From Octopus vulgaris (taxonomy: Eukaryota), in contig OX597822.1 of NCBI GenBank assembly GCA_951406725.2, positions 59,830,001 through 59,894,000 on the forward strand: DNA of 64,000 bases, written 5' to 3'. Below are positions 2,727 through 63,614 of this stretch, piece after piece (position 1 is the stretch's first letter; each line of letters begins with the position of its first letter). The notes beneath the pieces were generated by a model. That model was not told the origin of the DNA, did no database searches, and saw only the letters and a program-made list of their open reading frames with translations. Made by a program: the position numbers and the translations under genes.

Positions 2727-2894
2727 AAATTTACTATTTCTTTTACTACAAAAGACAACCAGGAGTTGATGGATCAATATGATTACAACAGCAGATATAA
2801 TATGCCCCACAAGAGCATCGAAGAAGCCAGTTATCAAATGGTGACTACGCCTGGGCAATATGGAACTGGTAGTCAACTGACATATCAAATACGA
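2727..2894 (+). CDS. Gene A exon: C-terminal half of C2/MNNL domain
   Basis: tttcag|[20 protein letters not shown]...SQLTYQIR|gtaagt, 168 nt, phase 0-0; same length as 48792-48959. Confidence 0.85.
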
Positions 2895-5800
2895 GTAAGT
2901 CTTTAAGTTATGAACTGTTTTGAAATTATCTTGAAATTTCTTGCCCTCCTTTTATTGATCAGTGCGTATCATTCGCATCACTCAAATTTGTATTCTTGTT
3001 GCTTTTTATTGCTGCTTGCATTGCGGACACTGTTAGCCTCTGCTCGGAGACATTGATAAACCCAATGTTACTGATCAAACCTTTGGTCCTCCATTTCTGA
3101 TCTTCAGTTCATGAATGTATTCTAGGACCTACTTGTATATGTATCAGGCAGCAGTTGGCGTGCAGTTGGAATAATGGTTGAGTGACAGTGAAATTATCTG
3201 GTATTTATTTTTCTGTCCAATCTGCTCTTGAATTAGATATCACTCACACCTCTAGCGATGCAAAAATTGTGCAATAAACATGTTTATCCTCAATACGATC
3301 TATATACGACCAAAATAGCATAAATCTTTAAACGTTCCATTTGCTAAAGTCTTAGAATATTTGTGTAATTGTTTTATTTCAGACTTACTGCAGCCAAGGC
3401 TATTACGGTCCTAGCTGCGCGGTGAGATGTGAAATTCCCATCATTGAGCAAGTCAGGTTTATGTGTAATAACAACGGTAAAAGAGTCTGCAAGCCTGGTT
3501 TCTCTGGTTCGTTCTGTAACCTCAATGGTAATTATAGATTATTTCTGTCTCTTTACATCATGAAGTTTAATCTCGCCTCGATCAGTTTCGCCTTTTAAAT
3601 TCCTGAGTCCGATGAATTATGGTACGGTTCAATAATAGCTTGTCAATGACGTGCATCTAATTGCCATCTGCTTAAACGAAATGCGTATCTTGATATTTAT
3701 CGGAAACAGGAATTAAATATTCACTGGATTTGCGGAAATAACACATCGAGTATATGAAGAGATTTTATTTCACACAATTGTACAGCTTCACACCTTTTAA
3801 CGATGAATATACACTTAGTATGATTCATAGATGGCGTTTGTAATTTAAGGCATACACAGAGCCTCGTTTCCATTTTTAGTTTATCAATCCGAGAAAAAGT
3901 AGAAAACAATACAAATTGGTTTCGGCGAAATTTGAGAGAAGCCACGGTACAATATCTAATTAGATACGCTACTGTTTGTGCCACTCCAGTGGCACAAACA
4001 TACAAATACTAACAATACAATATTATAGAACATAAGTATTAGTAAGAGTTAGAAGTATGAGATTGCAATAGAAAATAAGGAGTCGCTATAATGAGTCGAC
4101 TCTTTGTTCTCTGGCGAAGTTGGTTCACTTCCCTCAATCTTTAGTGCCTGGAGGAAAGCACTTAGTATCTCAAAATATTATGCTTTATTACCCTCTCTTA
4201 TAATACATATCGCCTTGAATAATCAATAGCAGCCAAAAACATAATTTTGAATAATATAATTTTGATAAGATTTTTATGACGTATAAATACTAAACTGTTT
4301 CTAAAACTTTTTACACTCTATTCATACGATTTAGCCATCAATGTCTCAATATCTTGAATTTGTTCCCTTACATTCTAAATTCCCGATAATCCAAAACAGC
4401 CATTAATGAATAAAAATATTAAATCAATCAACCAATTACCTCTTTTTTTTCTCCCATACATCCTATAATTATTCGTGACTTTTTCAAATAAACTTAAATC
4501 TATGTGGGACTTGCTCTTTTGAAAAGAATGTCTCTTTAAGCTGTAGTCATTCGTTATTATTACAGGGCTCCACGCTGGACGAAATACTTAACGGTATTTT
4601 GCCTGTCAAAAAGGCGGCGAGCTGGCAGAAACGTTAGCACGCCGGGCGAAATGCTTAGCGGTATTTCGTCTGCGTTACGTTGTGAGTTCGAATTCCGCCG
4701 AGGTCGACTTTGCCCTTCATCCTTTCGGGGTCGATAAATTAAGTACCAGTTACCGACTTAATACCTATGTCTGTCCTTGTTTGTACCCTCTGTGTTTAGC
4801 CCCTTGTGGGTAATAAAGAAATTCCACCGAGGTCGGCTTTACATTTCATCCTTTCGGTGTCGATTAAATACGTACCGGTTATGCACTGGGGTCGATGTTA
4901 TCGACTTAAATCCTCATCCTCAAAAATATTTCAGGCCTTGTGCCTACAGAAGAAAGGACTATTACTGGGTCCCTGCTCCTAACGGCAGAAAGCTACACCA
5001 TCACATAATACATATTTACAGCGAGGCATTCAAATGAGAGTTGAATATCTTTGTCATTATTCTCAATGTAGCGCTAGTGATAATAATTGATGCTTTGACG
5101 CTTTCAACTCTAGACTGACATGGTGTCGACTCGACTGATGACAGCACAGAAATCTCTGCTAAAACTCATCAACAAATATTAACAAATTGTCTTTCTGTGA
5201 GATTGTAAATACATTGCTGTAATTAGTATATTTGATTCACTTACCTTTTATCGAATTTCATTATTTACTTTGAAAAAAATGTGTGTAAATGATATGTATC
5301 GTCAACATTTTTTTCAGCTGATGTATGTCGTAGCTCACCCTGTAAAAATGGTGCGACTTGTACTGTGCAAGGTTCTATGTTTAAGTGCTACTGCATCCCA
5401 GGATACACAGGACAATATTGTAATAAAGGTATTTATTTTTTTCTTATTAACTTGTAAACTTTATTTGAAACAATTCGTGAAACTGTATAATCCCAGCAAT
5501 CGCAAAATTATCAATGTGTATTTTATTTTAGCTATAACAATGTTGTTAATTGAAGCTATTTCATAGAATAAACTCTTTTTAACGTGGAAATGTTTAACAT
5601 ATGTACACTCAGATTTACACTTTTAAATACATTATATATTTAATATTACATGCCCTCTGGTTCTACATATATACCACCTGCTTGTGTGTTATATACCTCC
5701 TCAAAAATATTCCAAATAATGACTGCAGATTATTTTGGTCATTTCCTTGACTGGACAATAATAATTTATTGTGAGTGATAAATCAAAAGCTTATCATAGT

Positions 5801-8800
5801 TGAGTTGTTAAGCTATTACTCTAGCTAAAAGTTAATATCTAGTACTAGTTTGATTATTAAAAATAAATAGAATTAAACATTTAGGTGTAGATATGATCGA
5901 ACGGTCGAACAATTTGTTGTTAGCTACATGTTGGGCAATAGTCAACAAGATATTAACAATAGGCCCTTAAAAAACTAACAATGAAGACATGCACGATATT
6001 GCAATAACTCTGGTGTTGTTCCAAATTAAAATGAGTTTTCAAAGCAAAGATTAACGAAGTGAAAGAATGGGTTAATATTAATTTATCTTAGGCATCGACG
6101 AATGCAGTCTGACGACAACTCCTTGCTTAAATGGTGGTACGTGCGTTGACGGTATTGGTAACTATTCCTGTATGTGTCCGAGTGGTTACAGTGGATTCAG
6201 ATGTGAATTTGGTAAGAATGAAGTATTTCTATTTCAATTTACATTATTATGATAAAGTATTGCAAACGTTTCATCAAATGTAAGTATTACAAGCGATTTA
6301 GTCATCAAGCTCCATTGGAAACTGAGAAATAATAACGGCCACTAAAGATGTCTAGTTATAAAAAAAAATGTTGGTATACATTGAATTCTTTTGTCTACAG
6401 AAACTATCTTATTTTATTGTAAAAACCAATCTTAGCTGGTTCTTTATTACGACTCATTAATTTACTAACTTAATTTCATTTAATCCGATGTAATACATTC
6501 TAATTTTCTTAACATGATATACTATTTAATATATTCTCATATAGATATATTATTCATTTAATAAATATATTTTGCCATATCCTTGTAACATAGCATATCC
6601 TTGCCGATTCCTTGTTGTATTCCTTATTGAAATATCCCGCCAATTATTTACATTATTTACATCTGATGGATGTTTGTCCTCATCTTGTTTGTTGTTAACA
6701 CAAAGTTTCGATTGATATACCCTCCAGCCTTCATCAGGTGTCTTGGGGAAATTTCGAACCTGATGAAGGCTGGAGGACAGCCGAAACGTTGTGTTAACAA
6801 CAAACAAGATGAGGACAAATATCTGTCAAATGTAAATAATGTACATAATTCTCTTTCTCTTAAATATAGAACTGTATAATCCCACAGCATTAGTAATAAA
6901 AATATGTGACAGACTATATTGATTTCAAATTATGGCACAAGGCCAGTAAGTTCGAGGAAGCGGGTAAGTCAATTAAATCGGCCCCAGTATTCGACCTCGA
7001 AAGGAATGAAAGGCTAAGTCGATCATGGCGGAATTTGAATTCAGAACGGAAAGACGGACGAAATGTCTATTTCTTTATTACCCACAAGGGGCTAAACACA
7101 GAGAAGACAAACAAGGACAGCCAAACGGATTAAGTCGATTATATCGATCCCAGTGCGTAACTGGTACTTATCTAATCGACCCCGAAAGGATGAAAAGCAA
7201 AGTCGACCTCAGCAGAATTTGAACTCAGAACGTAACGGCAGACGAAATACGGCTACGCATTTCGCCCGGCGTGCTAACATTTCTGCTAGCTCGCCGCCTT
7301 TCTGCGACTGACTACATTTGTTTTATTGATAACTAATCTCCCTATATACCCACTTCTCTTGAACAAGCCAACAAAATGTGTAGCGCCCATACATGTCTAA
7401 ATGCCGATCCATGCACTAATCTCGCCAAGGACTTCTAGTGTCGCTACAATGTGGGATTTTAACGGCAAGCGATGTGAACTTCATAATATATTCTTTTATT
7501 TTATATATTAGTAAAACATGAAGTTAGAAATAGATACTCAGCTGGTAAAATGGAATATGGAATATCCCAAGAATTTTCAATAAAATCTCATTGGAAATAT
7601 ACAAGATGATTTTTTCTTTATAAATTTCTTATAAATATGTTAACCATTTTTAATTATTTGTTGGAAGACGAATGCTAGAGCTACACGGCCATCTCAGTTT
7701 TGAAGAATGGAATAAAGAATAGTGTTGTTAACGTGAAATTTTGATAGTAGGAAGTGAGCTAAATGTAGACTTAATATAGATTTAAGGGATAGGAACGTGG
7801 TCTTTTTAATAACTACAATTTATGCTCAGTGGGGCTTTAACGAAGAGAAACAGAGTGAGACAGGAAAATAAAGATGTGTATAACGTATTGATGTGAGTGG
7901 GGCAAGGTTCAACTGGAAGTTCTGAACAGCAGAACTTCAATATTTCAGCTACAGAAAAGAAAAGAACAGAAAGCAGAATCAGTGCTAAGATGAAGAGTTT
8001 TAATTTATGTGGAATACACCATTCAGACGCCCAAAGAAGTCAGAAATCAAAGGAAAACTATCAAACCGGTTATAGCAGAGATATTCAATTTTAGATGATA
8101 TTTGGGTCAGATATTGACAAATTACTATCAGGAAATATAACCTATATTTACATGAAATTAATACCAAATTAGTATGGTAACTTGCCACTTAAGAGTCTAT
8201 TAGGAAAATCAAACACAGAAAGCGAAAAGAAGGTCTGAAAGCAAAATAATCAACAGACAGAAGCACATTTTCGATGGTTCATTTCGCATGCTATGGTTTT
8301 CAGTTCTCGGTATCAAACAAACAAAATAAAGCTTCTAAATACTGTATAATATTATATTTTCTCTAGGTATAAATTACTGTGATGCACAACCGTGCTACAA
8401 TGGAGGCACATGCACTTCGAATCTTAATGGTTATATCTGCAACTGTATGAATGGGTTTACAGGCAAACAGTGTCAAAAAAGTGAGTTATTTATTAAATTT
8501 TATGAGCTAAGATTTTCGTTCGGTAGGAGGAAATAAAGGCAAAAAACTTTGCGATAATTCAGTTGGTATAATGTTTCCTTTAATAAAAGCATAAAAAAAA
8601 TTGAGACGGCATCAAGTTGCTTGCTTTGTAAAAAAGAAATATATTTACCTCTGAAGACTGTGATTGACTTCCGCACAAAAGCCTTATTTACACACAACCT
8701 TAGTAATTCCTTTTATTATTAACAGAAATGTCGTTAGCTTTTCGATAGTGACATGAAGCATACTATACTTCTTAAGAACCCCATACTCTGGAACAACGCA

Positions 8801-11800
8801 CAGCTTAAAACTTCACTCTCTAAAAATAATGCACTTACAGTTACGCAGATCAATGCTTCATTCCAAAAACTGGTTTTCTTTTCTAAACCGTAAAATAATT
8901 CTGCCTTCCTCATCGGCTTTCCATACCGAGTTTGATACAATACTCTCTTAAATATCTTGATAGCATCCAATAAAAATTGCTCACCTAACAACAATCTTTA
9001 CTTATTAAATTTTCTAGTCTTTATCTATCTTTCAATGACCACCTTACTCTGACTGTTATAAAGGTGAAGAAGAAAACAGAATGAATCAAATTAACATTTC
9101 ATTAGTCAGAGGCCAAACAAGTCAATGAATAGAGAAAACAATTCCTTCTGTTTTAAACTTTCTAGCCCTTTGCAATCTCCACTTGAGCACATTTATGCAG
9201 GTCTCTTTGTCTCTTTCTCTCTCTCTTTTTCTCACTTAGACTTCTCGGTTTAGATATTGCTTCCAATCCTTTCTCTTTCTCTTACTGGGGATCCTTTCTG
9301 TTTGGCTGCGACTTTTTAATTTCTTAAATTTTTTTCCAATTGATTTCATATTCGGTATGTTGGTGTAGTTTTGTATGATTGTCATTTTCGCCATAAATTA
9401 ACAAGTAAAGATTTAATAGCTTTTAAATTTTCCAAATTTAGGGTACTTTTAGTTGATCGAAAGCCACAGACATAGAGGAACCTGTTTCCATAGTAATAAG
9501 CCAAGCTGTTGCCAAACCGCTTACCCACGTGGTCATTTTTCGCATATTAAATGCTCAAAACACATGAGATATAAGATAGTTGTGAGATGTGCTGAAAATG
9601 ATAGCTAAATATGCCTTAAATCACGCATTAATATTTGGCGGGGTGTATAATTCTATGAATTCCCGTGTGTAAATTCTAAACCATTTAAAAATTATGAGGG
9701 TTTATATGGCAGGCGTAAAATAGAATTCCGCCAATATTTCATTTGTTTACAGCTGACAAACCCTGTTGGATAGCTTCCAAACACTGTTGTCTGACTGTGT
9801 AAAAATGATCAAACTCTGCATCGCTTTTAAAACAATTTTTCTGGAAAAGTGAATTAGCTCCTGAGATTCAACGTGGAAAATTACATCAATACACCAAATT
9901 TTAAAATTTTCCTTAAACTTTAAAATTTCATCAAATGCAGCCAAACTGAAAAGATCCGCTACCTGTATTAACATCCTCTAACTGTATCCGTTAACATAAA
10001 AATAATAGAAAAGGTTAGAGGCCTGTTCTCTCTGAAAGCAACAACATATTGTGACGATAGAGTATCAAGATATTTCTTAAGTTCTCAGAATTTTGTAACC
10101 TGATATCTAGTCTTCATTTATAGTCATGAAGCTTCACTGTAACTGCTTCAGTTTGAATTATTGTATGTCACTACTACAGAATTAGATAACCCAGTCAGTT
10201 ATAATTAGTAGCAGCACGGAAAAATGGAGTATTTTGTTCGTGTTGGAATCTAGTCTTTTTATGGGTGACCATTTATATTTTATCTTTTAAAGTTTATTTG
10301 TTCCAGTCTTTAGAATGTGGCCATGTACCTCGAGGCATGTGGGACCGCCTCAGGGAATTTTAGTCGAATTAATTGATCCAAATACTTATTTTATTTTTAA
10401 GCCTATTGGTCTCTTTTGCCGAACCTCAAGGTTACGGGAATTTAAACACACTAATACCGGTTGTCAACCGGTGGTGAGGGACTAACAGATACAAACACAT
10501 ACATACACACACATACGATGACCTTCCTTAAGTTTCTTTTCAGTTTCTACAAAATCCACTTAAAAGGCTTTCGTGGGCCCGAGGCTATAGTAGAAGACTC
10601 TTACCCAACATGCCATGCAAGTAGGACTGAATCCAGAACCATGTGGTTGGGAAGCAAACTTCTTACCACCACCACCGTTACAAAAGGTGTAGGAATTAAA
10701 TAGCTTGACTCCCTTCTTGGACTAAACCAATGCAATTATTTCCTATTAAGAGATAACCTCATAGCGCGATACCGATTTAAAATAAAGGAAAGCGAAAAAC
10801 TTAATATATTTTGAAATACTCATTTTATTTCTTGGAACATCACTAAATGTTTGTCTATTTTTCTAGAGATGCGACCATGCTTCTTCGAAAAAGAGCCATG
10901 TTTCAATGGAGGTACATGTATCAATCGCGTCAATGATTTCATTTGCCAATGTCCCACTGGATTTACCGGAAACAGATGTCAAAGTGGTAACTGAGAGCTT
11001 TAACAATATTATTTACACACAGTTTTTTTAGGAAGACGTAATATAACTCGATTCTAGTAATTTAGAGAGAAGGTCGTTTCTGAATTTTACACTATCTAAT
11101 TCTAAGAGAAAAAAATTGGTTGATTTTTCTTTTGATTAAGAAGCACGTGAGATTTAATTCAATATATGTCATCTGTTCTCATACTCAAGGCGAATTCGAC
11201 GTGTTTACCATCAGCTTATAATAAAATTGAGCGCTGTAACCTGATTTTCAAAGGAAAATTAGACGCACATGAGGCAATAAAATTTCATAAGAATCTTCAG
11301 AACAAAACTTTCACTTAGAACACTTCGTGTTAACTTACAAAGTGTATATAACAACTTTAGGTAAAAAGGTCCGAAAGTGCTTTAATTTTTGTCTGTTTAA
11401 TTGTGCTCACATCTTTAACAAGAACTTAAGGAAATATAGTCACACGACTACTCTTAGATAATTAGTTGACAGTCATCGACGATAATATAGGTTTAAAATT
11501 TTGGCACAACATCAACAATTTCAGGGGAGGGGATAAGTCAATTACATCGATCCCAGTGCTTAACTGGTACTTATTTTATTGATCCTGAAACGATGAAAGG
11601 CAAAGTCGACTCCGGCGGAACTGAGAATGTGAAAACGGACGAAATACTGCTTGATATTTTGCCCGGCATGCTAACGATACTTCAGCTCGCCGCCTTAAAT
11701 GGTATTAACATTATAGCTGATTGTAAGGCAGCGAAGTGGCAGGCTCCTTAGAACACGGGAAAAATGCTTAGCGGCATTTCATCCGTTTTTACGTTCTGAG

Positions 11801-14800
11801 TTCAAATTCCGCTGAGGTTGAATTTGCCCATCATCATTTCGGGATCGATAAAATAAGTACCAGCTGAGCACTGGAGTCGATGCATTCGCCTTACTACCTC
11901 CTCTAAGACTGCTGGCCTTGTGCCAAAATTTGAATCCAATATTAATACTTCATTTCTATAATATTAATAGAATAGTAATAACTCTAATTTTAGTACAGCT
12001 ATAAAATTGCTTTCAAATTTTGACACAAAGCCAGCAATTTCGGGGGTGGGGTTAAGTCAATTACATCAACCCCAGTGTTCAAATGGTGAATGTTTTATCG
12101 AACTCAAATGGATGAAGGAGTAAGTCGACCGTGGCGGAATTTGAACTCAGAAGTAAAAACGGAAGAAATACTGCTCATCATTTTGCGCGACGCAGTAACG
12201 ATTTTCAGCTCCCCGCCTTAATAATATAACCATAATATTAATACAACTTTATTTATATTACCAATTGACGCTATATCAAGCATATTTGAATTTAATATGT
12301 TTTTAACGTTTTATTGATATGTGCGTTAAGTTAGTAGTTTTACATGAGATGATATGAGTTTTGCATTGACAGTTTTACTTTGGCTTCTGATATATCACTC
12401 AGTAAAAATTATATTGAGGCATAACTATGCTAACTTAACATTCGAGTTTTGATTCATTCAAAATGAAAAAAATCACGTTCACTTGCAACTCATTTACAAA
12501 ATTAAGTCTTTTTGTAATGGTACTTTAATAACTCTCATAAAACAGTTTTTATTTCCTAACAATTTTATTTGATCACCTGCTAATTTATTCTTTTTCTATT
12601 TTTTGCTTTTGAAACTAGTTCTTTCAGCATGTTCTTCAATAACTTGCCTCAACGGTGGCACATGTGTGAATTCGGGTACCTCATTTGTATGCCAATGTCC
12701 TCCTAACTTTTACGGTAATCTTTGTCAAATTGAAGATAAATGTCGGACAGTGACTTGCCTAAACGGTGGTCGATGTGTTACAGCTAACATGGTTGCGAAA
12801 TGTAATTGCCCATCTGGATTTACTGGTCCACGATGTGGAATTTCCATTAATTCCTGTCAACCCTCACCGTGTCAAAATGGAGGAACATGCTATCCAAATG
12901 GAATTCAATTCACTTGTCTTTGCCCTGTTGGATTCACAGGACAACGATGTGACCAACGAATTTGCCCACCAAATATTTGTCAAAATGGTGGAACTTGTCA
13001 GATGATAAACAATCAAATCACTTGCCTATGCCGCAGTGGATATTACGGAGACAGGTGCCGGATGACGAACCATTGCAATCCACAATGTCAAAATGGAGGA
13101 ATTTGTGACGCAGTCACACGAAGATGTAATTGCCCTCAAGGATTTTTAGGAATAGATTGTTCAAGTAGAGATGCTTGTGGTTCTAATCCAAATTTCTGTG
13201 AAAATGGTGGAACTTGTCAGATGATAAACAATCAAATTAACTGCCTATGCCGCAGTGGATTTTACGGAGACAGGTGCCGGATGACGAACCAATGCAATCC
13301 ACAATGTCAAAATGGAGGAATTTGTGACGTAGTCACACGAAGATGTAATTGCCCTCAAGGATTTTTAGGAATAGATTGTTCAAGTAGAGATGCTTGTGGT
13401 TCTAATCCAAATTTCTGTCAAAATGGTGGAACATGTCAGGTGGTAAACAATCAAATTAACTGCATATGTCCAACTGGCTTTTACGGAAATATATGCCAGT
13501 TTCCAAGTCCATGCTTTCCAAAATGTCAAAATGGTGGAACATGTAACTTAAACACAAGAATATGCGACTGTCCTCCAGAATTTGGGGGTCGAGATTGTAC
13601 GATTAGAAATCCTTGTGCTTCAAAACCATGTTTGAATAATGGACAATGTTATGTACAAGAGTCATATAATTACACCTGTACATGTACCTCTGGATATACT
13701 GGAAAAAATTGTGAGAGTTTGGTAACGGTTTGTGCAACAAACCCCTGTTTAAATGGTGGACAATGCTTTCCTATGGGCAGCAACTTTGTTTGTGCTTGTC
13801 GACAAGGCTGGACTGGACAGAGATGCGAATTTCAAAGTGATCCATGTAATCCGAAACCTTGTCTTAACAACGGCGGCTGTACCAGATATGGAACGAATGA
13901 CTTCACTTGTTCTTGCATTAATGGATGGTCTGGTAAGATTTGTGATCAAAAGAATCCAGCTGTGAATTGCCTAACAAACCCTTGTCGTAACGGAGGAACA
14001 TGCCTTTATAATGCCAACCCAGTCACTTGCAAATGCCCATCTGGTTTTGATGGGAATTACTGCGAAGGTTAGTATAACTTTTGAATGTTTCATAATTTGA
14101 TGCAGGATGGTGTGTGATTTAAGACCCGATTCAATCAAAATCCAAATATTACTTCAATTCCAAGTTGCAGCCCCCCCCCCCCTCCCCTTCGCTTCACTTA
14201 TGTCGTTTGTATCGTTCGGAAAATTTACCGTGCCCTGTTGCTATCATTCTTTCTAATCAAAAAATTAACTTCAAACTTATATTCCAAAAGCATGTAACTT
14301 TAATGTGTTGATAAGCTTGTTCGATATTTCAAATTTAGATTCCTTCAATGAATTTCCTTCAGAGTTCTAAAACAAAACAAAAATTCCTTTCCACCATTCT
14401 CAAGGATTGATTCGAACAAAAAAAGAAAGGTCTTATAAAATAGATTATATTTATTTTATCGTAAATACACTAACTTTTCATATACAAATAACTTTAACAT
14501 TTTATCTCCCTTTAACGTTAATGTATAAAAATTCTTTAAGCAAGAATGGTACAAGGTATGGAAACAGATATGCCAAATTAAATGAGTATCAACACTCTAA
14601 TTAAAAATCATACGCTATGAGGAAAATACTACATTAGCTCCATGACAGTATTTTAATCATTTTATAAAGAACGGGAGACAACTCAAATTGTGTTTAGATA
14701 TTGCTATCGCACCATAGACTTCAGAACAACTTTGAGTTTGGAGTACGAGATGAATTAAAGGTATTAGTAGACGGAAATATTTCCCTCAATCCATAATAGT

Positions 14801-17287: not shown

Positions 17288-18239
17288 TGTACGTACGTAT
17301 GTATATGTATCTATATAAATGTATATACATATATTTATACACGCAACACACATGGCCACGCGCATACAGACACACACGCATATACATGGGAATGCAGAAA
17401 ATTTCTTGGTTTTAAATGTTGCAACAGGCCTCGTTGGCAGCCCAACGATCCCAGTTCTTTTACTGAGCATAAAAAAAACTGAAGGCCTGCTGCAATAAAT
17501 GTGTAAATCCTCCTGTGTTTTCTTTTACTCCCAAACCAGGAAATTTTTAACACCCCCTTGTATATGCAATTTATAAAATGTTAATACGTAGAGTGGAGGC
17601 GGGTGGCTAGTGGTTAGGGTGTCAGCACCATGATCGTAAGATTGTGGTTTCGATTCCTGGACCGGGCGACATGTGTTCTTGAGCAAAACACTTCATTTCA
17701 CGTTGCTCCTGTCCACTCAGCTGGCAAAAATGAGTAACGCTGCGATAGACTGGTGTCCCGTTCAACTGGGGAACACATACGCCATAGAAACTGGGAAACC
17801 GGGTCCATGAGCCTGACTATGCTTTAAAAAAGGGCGCATTTATTTTATTTAAATACGTAGAACATAACATCTTAAACAATTGCTAAAATAGTGCTTGTAT
17901 TTTTCTTATTCTTTTGCAGTTATCATCTCCCAAACGAGTAAGTACTGAAACTTTATTCATTCTTGCATTTCCTATTTGATAATATATCTACTGAATCCGA
18001 TTAGTGGTTTTAATTTTTATTTTTTTAATTGTCTCAGACATTAGACTTCGGCTATGCTGTGGCACCGCCTTGAAGAATATTAGTCTGAGGAATCGACTCC
18101 AGGAGTTATATTTTTTTAAAGCGTAGTAATCATTCTACCGGGTTCTTTTGCCGAACGGCTAAGTTACGAGGATGTAAACACAGCAGCGGTCGTCAAGAAA
18201 TGCTGGTGGTGGACAAACACAGACACAAAGACAACTATG

Positions 18240-20037: not shown

Positions 20038-20464
20038 TCTGTGTGTGTGTGTGTTTGTGTATCTGATAGAGAAAGAGAGAGAGTTTATCCTTAGCATTTA
20101 TAAATGTAAATGGTGCGGCTGAATTGTTTTACCTAAGTGAAAAAATATCGAACATTTCAACAAGGATCTACAAGTGTGTGACTGGCCACTCAAAGCCAAC
20201 TGCCATAAATAAAAAAAGTTAGAGGTTCCTGACAGCAAAGCAGATCGATGAATAATTTTCAAGATTGGATTTACAGACTTGCTATGTAGTCAGTCTCTTT
20301 TAATTATATAAAAGTAATGATTTAAATATGCTTGAATAATCGTCGGTTTAAAAAGATGTATGATTTAAGTAGTCAGTCAATAAAATGTGTCAATGTGCTT
20401 CTATCCATATGTGTCTGTGTAACGTGTGTGTATATGTGTATGTGTATGCACATATGTATGTATG

Positions 20465-20516
<52 letters not shown>

Positions 20517-20856
20517 CGTGTATGTCTATGTGTATGTATGTATATTATGTATATATATACGCACACATGCATACATGTATACATATATATTCACATACAT
20601 ATATACATGTATATGCATATACATATATACATATATATATTGTGTTTATATATATATTTCTTTATTTTCTTTTTCAATAGACTTCACGTGTCCTCAGGCA
20701 TCCGGTCTTTTCCCTGACCCACAAAGCTGCAGACATTTTTACCAGTGCGATTGGAACCTTTCCTACAGAAAAGATTGTCCTGGAAACTTGCATTTCAACA
20801 AGAATCTACAAGTGTGTGACTGGCCACTCAAAGCCAACTGCCAGATTGGAAAATAA
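2727..20856 (+). CDS. Gene A (5'-incomplete): C2/MNNL-DSL-17xEGF-chitin-binding (CBM14) protein, presumed secreted. Exons 2727-2894, 3383-3527, 5318-5428, 6092-6211, 8367-8480, 10867-10986, 12619-14067, 17920-17937, 20681-20856
   Basis: All exons bounded by AG/GT with compatible phases; the joined 2421 nt are open to TAA (806 aa visible). Exon-by-exon homology to gene B. Equivalents of gene B exons 1-3 are presumably upstream of the window. Confidence 0.88.
3383..3527 (+). CDS. Gene A exon: DSL domain
   Basis: [48 protein letters not shown]; DSL cysteine pattern with CxxxYYGxxC; AG/GT ends. Confidence 0.88.
4572..4962 (+). mobile_element. tRNA-derived SINE family 1 (composite copy)
   Basis: A-box tggcagaaacgttag, B-box gttcgaattcc, core gaggtcgactttgcc-ttcatcctttcggggtcgataaattaagtacc; flanked by imperfect TSD tacagggctcc/tactgggtccc. 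Confidence 0.85.
5318..5428 (+). CDS. Gene A exon: EGF1
   Basis: [36 protein letters not shown], phase 1-1, 111 nt. Confidence 0.9.
6092..6211 (+). CDS. Gene A exon: EGF2 (calcium-binding-like)
   Basis: [39 protein letters not shown], phase 1-1, 120 nt. Confidence 0.9.
6642..6850. repeat. ~209-bp foldback hairpin containing hammerhead-ribozyme core motifs (probably Penelope pLTR-derived)
   Basis: Arms are near reverse complements; CTGATGA...GAAAC occurs on both strands. Confidence 0.75.
6925..7300 (-). mobile_element. SINE family 1 (two abutting/nested copies)
   Basis: Reverse complement of the 4613 element. Confidence 0.85.
7368..7482 (+). pseudogene. Dead EGF pseudo-exon in a gene A intron
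   Basis: [36 protein letters not shown]; in-frame TAG at 7436-7438, 1-nt frameshift, donor reads ataat instead of gtaa. Confidence 0.7.
8367..8480 (+). CDS. Gene A exon: EGF3
   Basis: [37 protein letters not shown]|gtgagt, 114 nt. Confidence 0.9.
10290..10677 (-). mobile_element. tRNA-derived SINE family 3; also ~18030-18450(-), 28652-28905(+), 31583-31716(+), 59523-59700(-)
   Basis: Recurring head gtggtaagaagcttgcttcccaaccacatgg...gggttcagtcc...gggcaagtgtcttcta. Confidence 0.75.
10867..10986 (+). CDS. Gene A exon: EGF4
   Basis: [39 protein letters not shown]|gtaac, 120 nt. Confidence 0.88.
11495..12218. mobile_element. Cluster of three SINE family 1 copies (-, +, -)
   Basis: ~11495-11695(-), ~11727-11935(+), ~12015-12218(-). 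Confidence 0.8.
12619..14067 (+). CDS. Gene A large exon: 13 tandem EGF repeats
   Basis: ORF 12603-14072; acceptor at 12619 or the in-frame alternative 12628; donor gaag|gttagt. Confidence 0.93.
16053..16305 (-). mobile_element. tRNA-derived SINE family 2; also 17593-17846(+), 22022-22328(-), 46704-46960(+)
   Basis: Head gtggctagtggttagggtgtcag...ggtttcgattcc; body ttcttgagcaaaacactt...gctgcgatagactgg; tail aaaagggcgcat(ttta)n. Confidence 0.82.
17920..17937 (+). CDS. Gene A 18-nt micro-exon linker (VIISQT)
   Basis: ttattcttttgcag|ttatcatctcccaaacga|gtaagtac; same flanks and length as 54926-54943. Confidence 0.75.
18780..19500 (-). mobile_element. CR1/L2-like LINE 3' RT fragment
   Basis: [20 protein letters not shown]...LQRSITRKI...LQRRRDRY. 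Confidence 0.8.
20153..20212 (+). pseudogene. Partial duplicate of the 3' part of the gene A CBM14 exon
   Basis: 53 bp matching 20791-20843 with one mismatch; reads [19 protein letters not shown]. Confidence 0.85.
20681..20856 (+). CDS. Gene A terminal exon: chitin-binding type-2 (CBM14/peritrophin-A) domain
   Basis: [57 protein letters not shown]; C-x12-C-x5-C-x9-C-x12-C-x7-C with aromatic residues; AATAAA at 20959. Confidence 0.9.
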
Positions 20857-29498: not shown

Positions 29499-30930
29499 TT
29501 GCGGTCAAAATGTTCAGAACGGCATTGTTTTCGCCAGAAAAGTAGGTATAAATTTTTATCAAAGTTGTTTTATATTCTATAATTTTCACAGACAATAAAT
29601 ACAATATTAATTGTTATTGTCTGAGATTTTGCTGTAATTTGAGAGGATGGATAATACAAAAGTTATGGATGATTTAGTGATTTACTGCAAAACCCATGGC
29701 GGCCAAAATGATCAGAACGGTTGCTTTTACTCCGTATTTTAGTATATTTAACCGGCGAACTCTAATGTTTTGAATTTGTTTACGTGATGGTTGGTTCGTT
29801 TACTAAACATTAGTAAGAATATCTGCAGTGTACTTTGTTAATATAATGCCACTTACTCCGTTACCAATTCATCAGCAGATTATTAAGCTTCGAAAGAAGG
29901 ATAATTTAAGTATTGGGCCTATTGCAAAGATTGTTAACAAGTCAAAAAGTGTTGTTCACGGTATTCTTAAGGTCTTCGATGATTGTGGTTCGAGTGAAGC
30001 AAGAAAGTCTACAGGAAGGCCAAGAAAAAGGACCAAGAGAGAAGATCGTGCTATGGTAAAGTTGGTTAAAAAGGACAGATTTAAAACTGCTGCTTCTGTT
30101 TCTCGGGAAATGAGCATTGTACTGAAGAAAACGTTATCTCGAAAAACTGTGTCTCATCGTTTAGTTGAACCTAACCTACAAGCAAGATCACCTGCAGTGA
30201 AGCCACTGATCAGCTCCAAAAATAAAAAGTGTCGACTTACCTTTGCAATCGAACATGTGTTGTGGTCTCGAGAAAAATGGCAAATGGTGCATTTCAGTGA
30301 TGATTCTAAGTTTATGTTATTTGGCTCAGATGGGAAAAGGTACGTTCGTTGAAAAGTAGGTGAAAAATTGTCGCCTAAATGCCTTAAGACTAGTGTTAAA
30401 TTCGGTGGAAGAAGTGTCATGGTTTGGGGGATGATATCTGGAGATGGTGTGGGCTCTTTGGTGCGATTACACGGAAAGGTAAATGCAGGAGTTTATAAAC
30501 AACTTGAAAAAGATCATGTCTTGCCTGTGCTGAGAAATTCAACTTAGCGACCACCCATATTCATGCAGGACAATGCCCCATGTCACAAGGCTAAGGTGGT
30601 CATGAACTTCCTCAAGGCTGAAAAGGTTATTATTATGGATTGGCCTGCTCAAAGCCCAGATCTCAATCCTATTGAAAATGTGTGGAATATTCTAGGAGAA
30701 CGTTCGAAAGCCAGAAATCCTAAAATAAGCGAGCAATTATGGAATGCCCTTCAGGAAGAATGGAATAAGATCACCTAGCAAAAAATTGAAAATTTAATTT
30801 CCTCATGCAGTTGAAGATGTCAAAGTGTGATTGAAGCTAAAGGGCTTCACACTAAATATTAAATAATTCCAGTATTCTCTGTCATTTTTGATTATTTTGT
30901 TATTTTTTCAACCGTTCTGATAATTTGTCG
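29496..30930 (+). mobile_element. Tc1-family IR/DR-type DNA transposon, right end truncated
   Basis: TA|cagttgcggtcaaaatgttcagaacgg left end; inner direct repeat at ~29701; inverted copy of it at 30909-30930. Confidence 0.88.
29846..30862 (+). pseudogene. Tc1 DD34E transposase pseudogene (338 codons, 4 premature stops, no frameshift)
   Basis: GRPRK, FSDDSKF, VMVWG, QDNAPCH...SPDLNPIE (34 aa between D and E), GLHTKY*; stops at 30350, 30545, 30776, 30812. Confidence 0.92.
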
Positions 30931-42826: not shown

Positions 42827-56646
<13,820 letters not shown>

Positions 56647-61080: not shown

Positions 61081-61407
61081 GTGTGTTCGGTGAGAGCAAG
61101 CTAAACAGTGACTGAACGCATCTGCTGTGTCAGTTGATTTGTGAATTTCCACGCTCTTCATTCAGGACAAACAATCGATTAAAAGAATGAGTTCTCAAAT
61201 GGTATGAAAATCTGAAAGGATTGAGAGGAAACAATTGAAGTGGACAGGGTCTGAGTCATTTAATTTAATTGTGTATTGGGAAAGAGATCGAGTTAAAAAA
61301 AAAAAAAACATAGGCAGGTAGATGCATAGACAGAGAGAGAGAGAGATAGGCTGACTGACACACAGACAGGTAGATAGATAGATAGAAAGATAGATAGATA
61401 GATAGAT

Positions 61408-61457
<50 letters not shown>

Positions 61458-61484
61458 TAGATAGATCGATAGATAGATAGATAA

Positions 61485-63042
61485 GTTTCTTTATTGGCCA
61501 CACAGGGCTGCACACAGATGGGACAAGTTACAAGGTAGAGCTTTTCTTTTGGGGGATGAAGAAAACAAACAAAAAAAAGGGGGTGGCGTAGGTTTTCGAT
61601 CAAGAGGGATCGTAAAAGGGAAGAAAAGAACAAAGAAAAATAAATAAATAAATAAAATAAAAAATAAAAAGAATAAAAAAAAAGGAAAAGGAAAAGGAAC
61701 AAGAGAAAAGAGAAATGAAAAAAGAAGAAAAAAGGGGAAAAAAAGGGGAAGAGGAAAAAAAAGAACGATCAATAGGAATCGTGTATCACAGTGTTATGAT
61801 ATATGGTTTAAAGGGGAAAGCAAGTAAGGTTTATCCGTGGGAAGAAAAGCCTACGAAAAAGACCACGGTAACCTTGGTCAATATTGTTATATGTTACCAC
61901 ATTTGTTTGCAAGTGGGTAACCCTCTCTTTTCAATTTCTGGGTTCATAGGATTATGCTCAAGGTGGCTTCGTCATTCATACGTGCCATCCTTGCTACATT
62001 CACCCATCTTTTTTTAAAACATTCGCTAGACAAAACTTGCCTCTCTACTCTCACTTTCCTCTTCAAGTGATACTTGAAGAAGTTGATGAGAGATTGACCA
62101 GAGAGGAAAGTGTTTGTCTCTAATCCTTTAGGCGCGTCCACCAGATACATTCTTTCGCCATAGCCACAAGTATGATAAAAATAGCTCTTCCTTCTCGTTT
62201 GAAGGAAGGAGGCGTGACGATATTAACGATAGACTCGGCTGATAAACCGACACTTCCCACACGTGACAGCAGTCGTTCGACATAAGCCCACAGGTCGGAG
62301 ATTGTTGGACACTGCACGATTGCGTGCAGAACGGTTTCTTCACTCTGCCCGCATCTCGGGCAGATCGGCCCCGTGTTTCTCGAGCCATGCCTATAGAGCT
62401 TTTCCCGAACGGGTAGCGCTTCCCGGTAGCACCACCAGGCCAGGGATGTCTGGAAGTTGTCCATAGGTCCCGGCCCGAAAGTCATTTCAAACAGGTGGGT
62501 CAGGTATTCCTCGTCGACGCCCAGGTTTACCCCAAGATCGTCGTCGTACCTCCCCTCCACTAATCCCCTGTAGAATGCTTTGGTTGTGTTGAAGTTACTC
62601 AAGGTCGTCCCGGGACGGCAGAGTTGCTTGAGAGCAACGCGACACTCGCGATGCCATTCGCACTTCCTCGGCTTCTTTTTGATCCACGACTGCAGTTCGG
62701 TCATGGAGACGAGCTGCGGGAATGCGTGCCTCACATACGGCGACCACACCTGTTCACCGTCGTCTACATAGAGCCGGAGATGTCGCAGTCTCAGCGCGTG
62801 TCTGTGCATCATCAACCACGGCATGCCCAGCCCTCCTTTTAACGGGTGTTGACAGCAAATGGATCGCCTGACCATCGGGACGCATCCTTTCCACAAGAAG
62901 CGGAAGAGAATGCGTTCTAGTTTGGTGATGGTAGGGTCGGGACAAGGTACGACGGTCAGGCGGTAGTAGATGATGGACGCGATGTACGTGTTCGCCACCT
63001 CCGCCCGACCTTTTAGGGACAGTTTCCTCTCGGCCCATTGCC

Positions 63043-63043
<1 letters not shown>
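61485..63043 (-). mobile_element. Tx1/L1-clade LINE, 5'-truncated copy 1
   Basis: W..RKLSLKGRAEVANTYIAS...FLWKG...GGLGMP...CPRC...ETVLHAIVQCP (L1/Tx1 ORF2 C-terminus with CCHC-type finger); both ends in (GATA)n. Confidence 0.88.
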
Positions 63044-63115
<72 letters not shown>

Positions 63116-63116
63116 T

Positions 63117-63585
63117 GTTTCTTTATTAGCCACACAGGGCTGCACACAGACGGGACACATTACAAAGTAGAGCTTTTCTTATCTTGGAGAAAAAAAAGTG
63201 GGGTAGGTTTTCGATCGTAAGAGGGAAAGAAGAAAAAAAAATGAAAATAAACAAAAGAAAAGAAAAAAGGGAAGAAAAAAGAAAGGAAAAAAGGAAGAAA
63301 AAAACGGTCAATAGGGATCGTGTATCACAGTGTCATGATGTACGGTGTAAGGGGGGAAACAGATAAGGTTTATCTGTTGGAAGAAAAGCCTACGGAAAAG
63401 ACCACGGTAACCTCGGTCAAAATTGTTACATGTTACCACACTTGTTTGCTAGTGGGTAACCCTCTGTTTTCAATTTCTGGGTTCATAGTATTATGCTCAA
63501 GGTGGCTTCGTCATTCATACGTGCCATCCTTGCTACATTCACCCATCTTTTTTTTTAAACATTCGCTAGACAAAACTTGCCTCTA
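63117..63585 (-). mobile_element. Tx1/L1-clade LINE, 5'-truncated copy 2
   Basis: Near-identical to the 3' part of copy 1; (GATA)n on both sides. Confidence 0.85.
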
Positions 63586-63614
63586 TAGATAGATATATAT
63601 ATATAGAGATAGAC

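Follow-up and report, generated by a model that had tools for sequence, protein, structure and literature searches.

One EGF exon diverges between near-identical introns in a tandem octopus gene array with a Notch-ligand-like head

Results

The window analysed here, a 64,000-nt stretch of Octopus vulgaris DNA, contains the 3' part of one gene (A) and the whole of a second (B), members of a tandem array of seven Octopus copies (A–G) covering about 260 kb, with none elsewhere according to searches of the species' own genome (Table 1). In both genes the frames are open and AG/GT sites are present at all exons, and the exon order is signal-peptide-like, three C2 (MNNL), DSL, single-EGF exons, long multi-EGF exon, linker and CBM14. 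The signal-peptide exon and the first two C2 exons of A fall outside the window, 14.1, 8.5 and 0.4 kb before its start. Copies D, E and F have open exons with intact splice sites from the start exon to the long EGF exon. Copy C has one frameshift, in the assembly, in its repeat-rich long exon, and in copy G the first C2 exon is frameshifted and the donor site following EGF1 reads GA. A search for further donor copies gave eight genome matches, all inside the array and none outside it.

Table 1 Exons and aligned tracts of genes A and B (window positions) and EGF1 exon starts of the remaining copies (C9 positions)
Feature	Position	Strand	Remark
A last C2 (MNNL-like) exon	2727..2894	+	AG/GT sites, open frame
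A DSL exon	3383..3527	+	Paralogue of the B exon matching PF01414
Sole long A–B alignable tract including introns	4963..6349	+	228/1142 intron sites differ
A EGF1 exon (exon of the initial annotation)	5318..5428	+	
A EGF2 exon	6092..6211	+	
A EGF3 exon	8367..8480	+	No match in copies B–G
A EGF4 exon	10867..10986	+	No match in copies B–G
A long multi-EGF exon	12619..14067	+	Internal 219-nt repeats
A 18-nt linker exon	17920..17937	+	
A CBM14 exon and stop	20681..20856	+	
B start and signal-peptide-like exon	42827..42883	+	N-terminal helix in model of relative
B first C2 exon	43409..43598	+	PF07657 MNNL, E 3.6e-05, above cut-off
B second C2 exon	45974..46056	+	
B last C2 exon	48792..48959	+	
B/E/F tract, 97-98% identical	49214..53011	+	66/3200 intron sites variable
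B DSL exon	49364..49508	+	PF01414, E 1.6e-11
B EGF1 exon, the divergence island	50302..50412	+	
B EGF2 exon	51103..51222	+	2/120 variable among B, E and F
B long multi-EGF exon	52808..53809	+	Second island against E and F
B 18-nt linker exon	54926..54943	+	
B CBM14 exon and stop	56471..56646	+	PF01607, E 8.1e-14
Copy C EGF1 exon start	C9:59915394		
Copy D EGF1 exon start	C9:59946916		
Copy E EGF1 exon start	C9:59986518		
Copy F EGF1 exon start	C9:60032453		
Copy G EGF1 exon start	C9:60067241		

Exon content differs among the copies. The long EGF exon measures 219 nt in E, 675 in F, 1002 in B (where it includes one irregular EGF), 1227 in D, 1449 in A and about 2540 in C, differences that are largely the gain or loss of a 219-nt unit, so that the rod between head and CBM14 is strongly unequal among copies. 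An internal stretch of about 2.8 kb is duplicated in copy G (C9:60070921-60073700), giving it a second EGF2 exon, and copies C and G have a second, partial signal-peptide exon 3' of the first C2 exon, about 1.5 kb past the start exon. The intron between EGF2 and EGF3 of A contains a decayed exon of EGF type, interrupted by stops and a frameshift (window 7365-7490), and a 53-nt duplicate of part of the A CBM14 exon, 98% identical, lies about 0.6 kb upstream of its source (window 20153-20205). Several public O. vulgaris models of the array, which carry the name of Notch homologues, are out of frame or fuse two copies.

The encoded head combines C2, DSL and EGF domains, as found by Pfam, by phmmer (to DLL1, residues 26-254) and by fold, and the same head is present in the Notch ligands (Delta/DLL1/DLL4, Serrate/Jagged and molluscan Delta2). 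The predicted structure of an O. sinensis relative (mean pLDDT 85.5) matches the heads of Jagged-1 (4cc0, E 6.6e-17) and DLL4; its C2 domain fold also matches C2 proteins of the tardigrade Mn-dependent peroxidase kind (7dbu, 7df2, 7dbt; E 9e-08 to 1e-06; ranks 25-28). In true Notch ligands, residues of the DSL motif contact Notch and EGF1-2 take part in receptor binding. Unlike these ligands, the array proteins have no membrane helix (top 19-residue hydropathy 0.52-1.08 in six family proteins, compared with 2.7-3.4 in membrane-type relatives), and the gene ends in CBM14 without a transmembrane helix or cytoplasmic tail. The conserved DSL motif (FCRPRDD-FGH; for the DSL domain of B, the Delta motif FCRPRDDAFGHF) is replaced in the alignment of a relative to DLL1, and EGF1 is an ordinary EGF, given that the Delta/Jagged-type family PF21700 is not among the six families matching EGF1 or EGF2. 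Identity with molluscan Delta2 was rejected, as octopus Delta1, Delta2 and Jagged are other accessions in Table S2 of PMC8166818. In squid, an unspecified 'Delta-like protein D' is mentioned in the available parts of PMC5385879.

Relatives found by two word-index searches were Octopus proteins only (10 of 287 and 7 of 81 candidates). Across representatives, a HMMER search returned mainly EGF-repeat proteins, and the family CBM profile had no match at E<0.01 among 155 further proteins; one Pfam scan says nothing on CBM14, since at its threshold even two family controls gave none. In the literature searched, mostly openly accessible papers, no paper on the family was found, and octopus proteome tables could list the proteins.

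The initial annotation compared A with B and read exons more diverged than the neighbouring intron as accelerated evolution of a toxin or immune type. Its counts were reproduced: the EGF1 exons differ at 32/111 nt (5318-5428 against 50302-50412), including the swap of TVQ for VSM, the last C2 exons at 59/168 nt (28/56 amino acids identical) and the first 190 nt or so of the intron after EGF1 at 28/189 positions (given as about 29), while CBM14 is identical at 44/57 amino acids. The observation holds in part, and the contrast built on these counts is less strong than claimed. No other part of the alignable non-coding tract is as conserved as the cited intron stretch; the tract differs at 84/354 sites upstream of EGF1 (23.7%), at 118/650 over the whole EGF1–EGF2 intron and at 228/1142 in total (20.0%). 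Against all alignable intron the excess is weak in EGF1 (p=0.036) and absent in EGF2 (29/120, p=0.28). GC content accounts for only part of the EGF1 excess (p=0.044 when allowed for; EGF2, p=0.31). For the C2 exon the comparison with intron is not valid, because this exon falls outside the aligned tract 4963-6349; the introns flanking the C2, DSL and CBM14 exons are alignable over 9-128 of 400 nt, those flanking EGF1 and EGF2 over 157-386 nt.

Between A and B, dN/dS is below 1 in all five exons (NG86: C2 0.60, DSL 0.42, EGF1 0.61, EGF2 0.50, CBM14 0.17; transition-corrected 0.23-0.77, with dS 0.43-0.74 and a CBM14 omega of 0.17-0.23), and accelerated evolution of this pair is not upheld. At four-fold sites 23/65 differ, compared with 20% in the aligned intron, so either the aligned intron tract postdates the split of the two genes or it evolves more slowly than silent sites. 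These differences fall at 16/29 sites in the three C2 exons and at 7/36 in DSL, EGF1, EGF2 and CBM14 together, and the excess in C2 means that the C2 exon predates the intron with which it had been contrasted. The nonsynonymous divergence pN is 0.27-0.28 in EGF1 and 0.32-0.33 in the C2 exon, compared with 0.20 in the aligned intron. However, EGF1 of A and C differs at only 24/111 nt (pN 0.16), so the reported excess comes from the B side only; A's own EGF1 is slow, 4/36 amino acids from an O. bimaculoides A-type protein. The annotation's caveat of a mosaic history or intron conversion was borne out for this pair, and the A–B pattern is mostly mosaic history combined with a chosen stretch of intron. 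More generally, homogenised introns and the choice of stretch can put exon divergence above intron divergence in a pair of old copies even where dN/dS does not exceed 1.

The array copies exchange DNA, as seen from chimeric blocks and discordant region trees. In most intron flanks, the 5' half of B has diverged from E and F by about 11-25%, whereas the 3' half shows 94-98% identity with both. Up to the second C2 exon there is almost no difference between E, F and C, with E and F differing at 56/5541 non-coding sites over the 5' half; the middle of G resembles C, and its CBM14 region resembles B. Introns of D are 8-17% apart from those of B, E and F. Trees from the EGF1 flanks, EGF1, EGF2, DSL and C2 have conflicting topologies, and short patches are common to different clades, such as G's DSL and EGF2, which are B-like when compared with C.

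A much stronger excess of exon over intron divergence is found in EGF1 when the copies outside the window are compared. Over a 3.8-kb tract B, E and F vary at 66/3200 intron sites, compared with 28/111 sites in EGF1 (p=1.7e-20); compared in pairs, their EGF1 exons differ at 16, 18 and 24 of 111 nt (14-22%), and the surrounding introns by only 1-2%. In 3/3 pairs the most divergent 111-nt segment begins 1-11 nt from the EGF1 exon start, the 100-nt flanks carry 1-4 differences on each side, and purely intronic segments of the same length reach at most 4-7. Parsimony, with ties broken towards synonymous, places 26 nonsynonymous and 4 synonymous changes in EGF1 among these three copies, where the intron rate predicts 1.6 and 0.6. 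All of these changes keep the frame and the six cysteines; a conserved EGF glycine is missing from EGF1 of B, D and F. At 18 of the 28 variable sites there is a letter that A, C, D and G all lack, so most changes are new mutations, and those at the remaining 10 could derive from sister copies. CpG decay was rejected as the main cause, with only 7/28 variable sites in CpG context. The selection reading, which fails for A against B, is thus supported for EGF1 among the younger copies by the exon-precise peak, by 26/30 changes being nonsynonymous and by the faster amino-acid change along the D/B/E/F lineage described below.

The other B/E/F exons vary at 2/120 (EGF2), 8/145 (DSL) and 21/201 sites (start of the long exon). 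Every significant island found lies in an exon. The long exon of B differs from E and F at 17/201 and 16/201 sites at its start, and from F at 38/424 at its end, against a background of 96/4298, giving islands in the B–F and B–E pairs. Between C and G the islands are DSL (9/139) and EGF2 (9/120), against 101/6110. No excess over flanks was seen for the C2 exons in E–F and C–G, for EGF1 in C–G or for CBM14 in 4/4 pairs.

Four sequencing runs, two guessed to be RNA (X9, X11) and two DNA, were placed on window positions 49300-51700. In the presumed RNA runs depth is about 290-2400 in exons compared with 0-46 in mainly intronic bins; the DSL–EGF1 spliced joint occurs in both and the EGF1–EGF2 joint in one. 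By their differences the spliced pieces are D-, A- and C-like, so they do not speak for transcription of B itself. The two DNA runs contain a 614-nt intron contig with three differences that stops within EGF1, a single base short of the first F-specific difference, as expected of several copies with a common intron that part at the exon. The letters private to B at 50304 and 50357 are in no contig among those listed for the two DNA runs, and some B differences may therefore be polymorphism or error.

O. bimaculoides has one A-type and one B-type protein, the latter with three isoforms sharing one EGF1. From this B-type protein EGF1 is 11-14 amino acids distant in D, B, E and F and 6 in C and G, and EGF2 is 12-14 distant in D, B, E and F, 4 in C and 8 in G; C2, DSL and CBM14 have no such gap. 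Relative-rate tests on EGF1 are significant for B (8:1, p=0.039) and F (8:0, p=0.008) and not for D and E. Compared at the protein level, the C-, D-, F- and G-type EGF1 (4/7 types) are identical in O. sinensis proteins, where the corresponding EGF2 is 1-4 amino acids apart; no A-, B- or E-type EGF1 was found among the O. sinensis proteins compared, the closest to the B and E types being 8 and 6 amino acids away. This suggests that EGF1 types predate the species split, and favours exons that resist homogenisation over a very recent burst.

Codon models, in our own implementation and with sites called by naive empirical Bayes, were applied to exons that recombine, which inflates branch, branch-site and site tests. 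A branch model of EGF1 and EGF2 gives an omega of 1.24-1.29 on the D/B/E/F lineage compared with 0.47-0.49 (p=0.024-0.037), and indicates faster amino-acid change in EGF1-2 on that lineage; the foreground omega does not differ from 1 (p=0.44-0.51). The branch-site test gives p=0.015-0.035; in both tests the foreground was picked once the data had been seen. Nonsynonymous against synonymous change in EGF1 gives p=0.07-0.09 for B, E and F, and p=0.19-0.23 with D added. M1a against M2a on EGF1 gives p=0.0046, 0.074, 0.099 and 0.48 under four settings. An omega above 1 in EGF1 is thus only weakly supported by the codon models. The recurrent candidate positions are 15, 16, 24, 26-28 and 33. Among young copies, dN/dS of C2 and DSL is at or below 1.

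Discussion

We consider it fairly probable that divergent selection on EGF1 counteracts homogenisation by gene conversion, in the manner of the primate opsins. What is observed is an array with a mosaic history, a peak that follows the exon edges, more amino-acid changes than the flanking introns would predict, and faster EGF1-2 change on the D/B/E/F lineage. The case for selection rests mainly on where the peak sits and how sharp it is, rather than on the codon tests. Selection likely keeps EGF1 different in each copy, which would probably give each copy a different binding partner. New EGF1 variants would arise mostly by point mutation and partly from short patches of sister copies, and conversions erasing them would be selected against while the rest of the gene is homogenised. 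The contrast between A and B may be an older, weaker trace of the same process.

The peak could also have formed without selection if there is little constraint on the EGF1 loops (omega near 1), the old paralogues diverged by drift, and conversion stalled at the mismatched exon or missed it by chance. The foreground omega that is not above 1, the model dependence of the site test, the lost glycine in B, D and F, the irregular EGF in the long exon of B, the two of seven copies (C and G) broken in the assembly and the conflicting region trees all fit such a patchwork, and EGF1 distances of 14-22% lie near B's old 5' intron distances to E and F (about 11-25%), so simple retention could account for them. 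We nevertheless regard it as unlikely, because the gap would have to coincide with the two edges of the exon on at least two independent occasions, and EGF2 and the introns were homogenised despite introns 8-17% apart between D and B/E/F; the 26/30 nonsynonymous changes and the EGF1 types unchanged in O. sinensis also speak against it. Conversion of exons only, from reverse-transcribed sister mRNA, would leave foreign patches without selection, and would explain why every significant island is exonic and why G has short B-like patches in DSL and EGF2 relative to C; the spliced forms seen at high contig depth also fit it. It is very unlikely, given that 18/28 EGF1 letters occur in no sister copy and the assembly has no extra copy, that such patches would bring the donors' synonymous differences, and that the A-to-G excess that edited octopus mRNA might import is not seen.

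Acceleration of the whole gene between A and B, in the manner of venom genes, is already largely refuted and highly improbable. It draws on pN above the aligned intron in EGF1 and C2, and is opposed by dN/dS below 1 in 5/5 exons, by the low CBM14 omega, by the EGF1 excess being on the B side only and by introns around the C2 exon that do not align. Just as improbable is an assembly artefact, with B, E and F being haplotypes or chimerically joined sequence and the exon differences between them errors. The frameshift in the repeat-rich exon of C and the two B-private letters missing from the listed DNA contigs point that way, but the F-, D-, C- and G-type EGF1 recur letter for letter in O. sinensis proteins, the intron contig of the two DNA runs ends in EGF1 before the first F-specific difference, and the EGF1 changes retain the frame and six cysteines.

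A narrow divergence peak at one exon, between near-identical introns, is described for primate red/green opsin exon 5, RHD/RHCE and Drosophila CG18281/CG17637, and is read there as selection against gene conversion (available parts of PMC3924837 and PMC2588116). Like these, the octopus copies arose by tandem duplication, have introns that are nearly identical and diverge in a narrow peak at a single exon; they differ in having at least four EGF1 types in seven copies rather than two, and in a cross-species sharing seen at the protein level. As an analogy, such a peak under conversion is closer than gene-wide acceleration of the venom type. Small serum proteins (SSPs) of Protobothrops, with KA/KS of 1.5-1.7 and an intron KN of 0.05-0.065 in the available parts of PMC6609765, and snake venom genes are likewise tandem, small, disulphide-rich secreted modules with coding divergence above intron divergence among young copies. 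In the octopus, however, the signal is limited to EGF1 (and EGF2 on one stem) rather than to the whole mature protein, and dN/dS between A and B is below 1. In MHC and R-gene patchwork families paralogues also share short exon patches and broken copies are retained (available part of PMC3924837); the octopus array is likened to them from the sequence of one assembly.

From the order of its domains, the protein is predicted to be secreted, with CBM14 tethering it to chitin and the EGF rod setting its reach, and the head of C2, DSL and EGF1-2 would bind a protein partner, with EGF1 tuning specificity. Defence against microbes or parasites on chitin-lined surfaces is a tentative setting; a role in matrix or adhesion seems rather doubtful, one in prey-directed saliva unlikely and one in reproduction more unlikely still. 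It is conceivable, if somewhat doubtful, that in the O. vulgaris/sinensis lineage a Notch-ligand head became a chitin-tethered recognition protein in seven copies, its EGF1 binding face diversifying under strong selection driven by an arms race against microbes, parasites or prey. If this were true, the array would be a new invertebrate family of variable recognition molecules on a Delta scaffold. Under divergent selection on EGF1, it would be an unusually sharp example, in a cephalopod, of divergence maintained against gene conversion. The peak narrows the likely specificity surface to a single domain of 36 residues, and within it to about seven positions, at which domain-swap and binding tests can be aimed.

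Two further stretches of the window lie beside the genes. Positions 29807-30860 hold a 181-aa transposase-like frame followed by stop-bearing pieces, by its motifs presumably a decayed Tc1/mariner-like element. Positions 61268-63589 are GC-rich, with a minus-strand frame at 62123-63178, and we take them to resemble the 3' end of a non-LTR retroelement; this stretch is bordered by a duplicated 280-nt block and GATA repeats.
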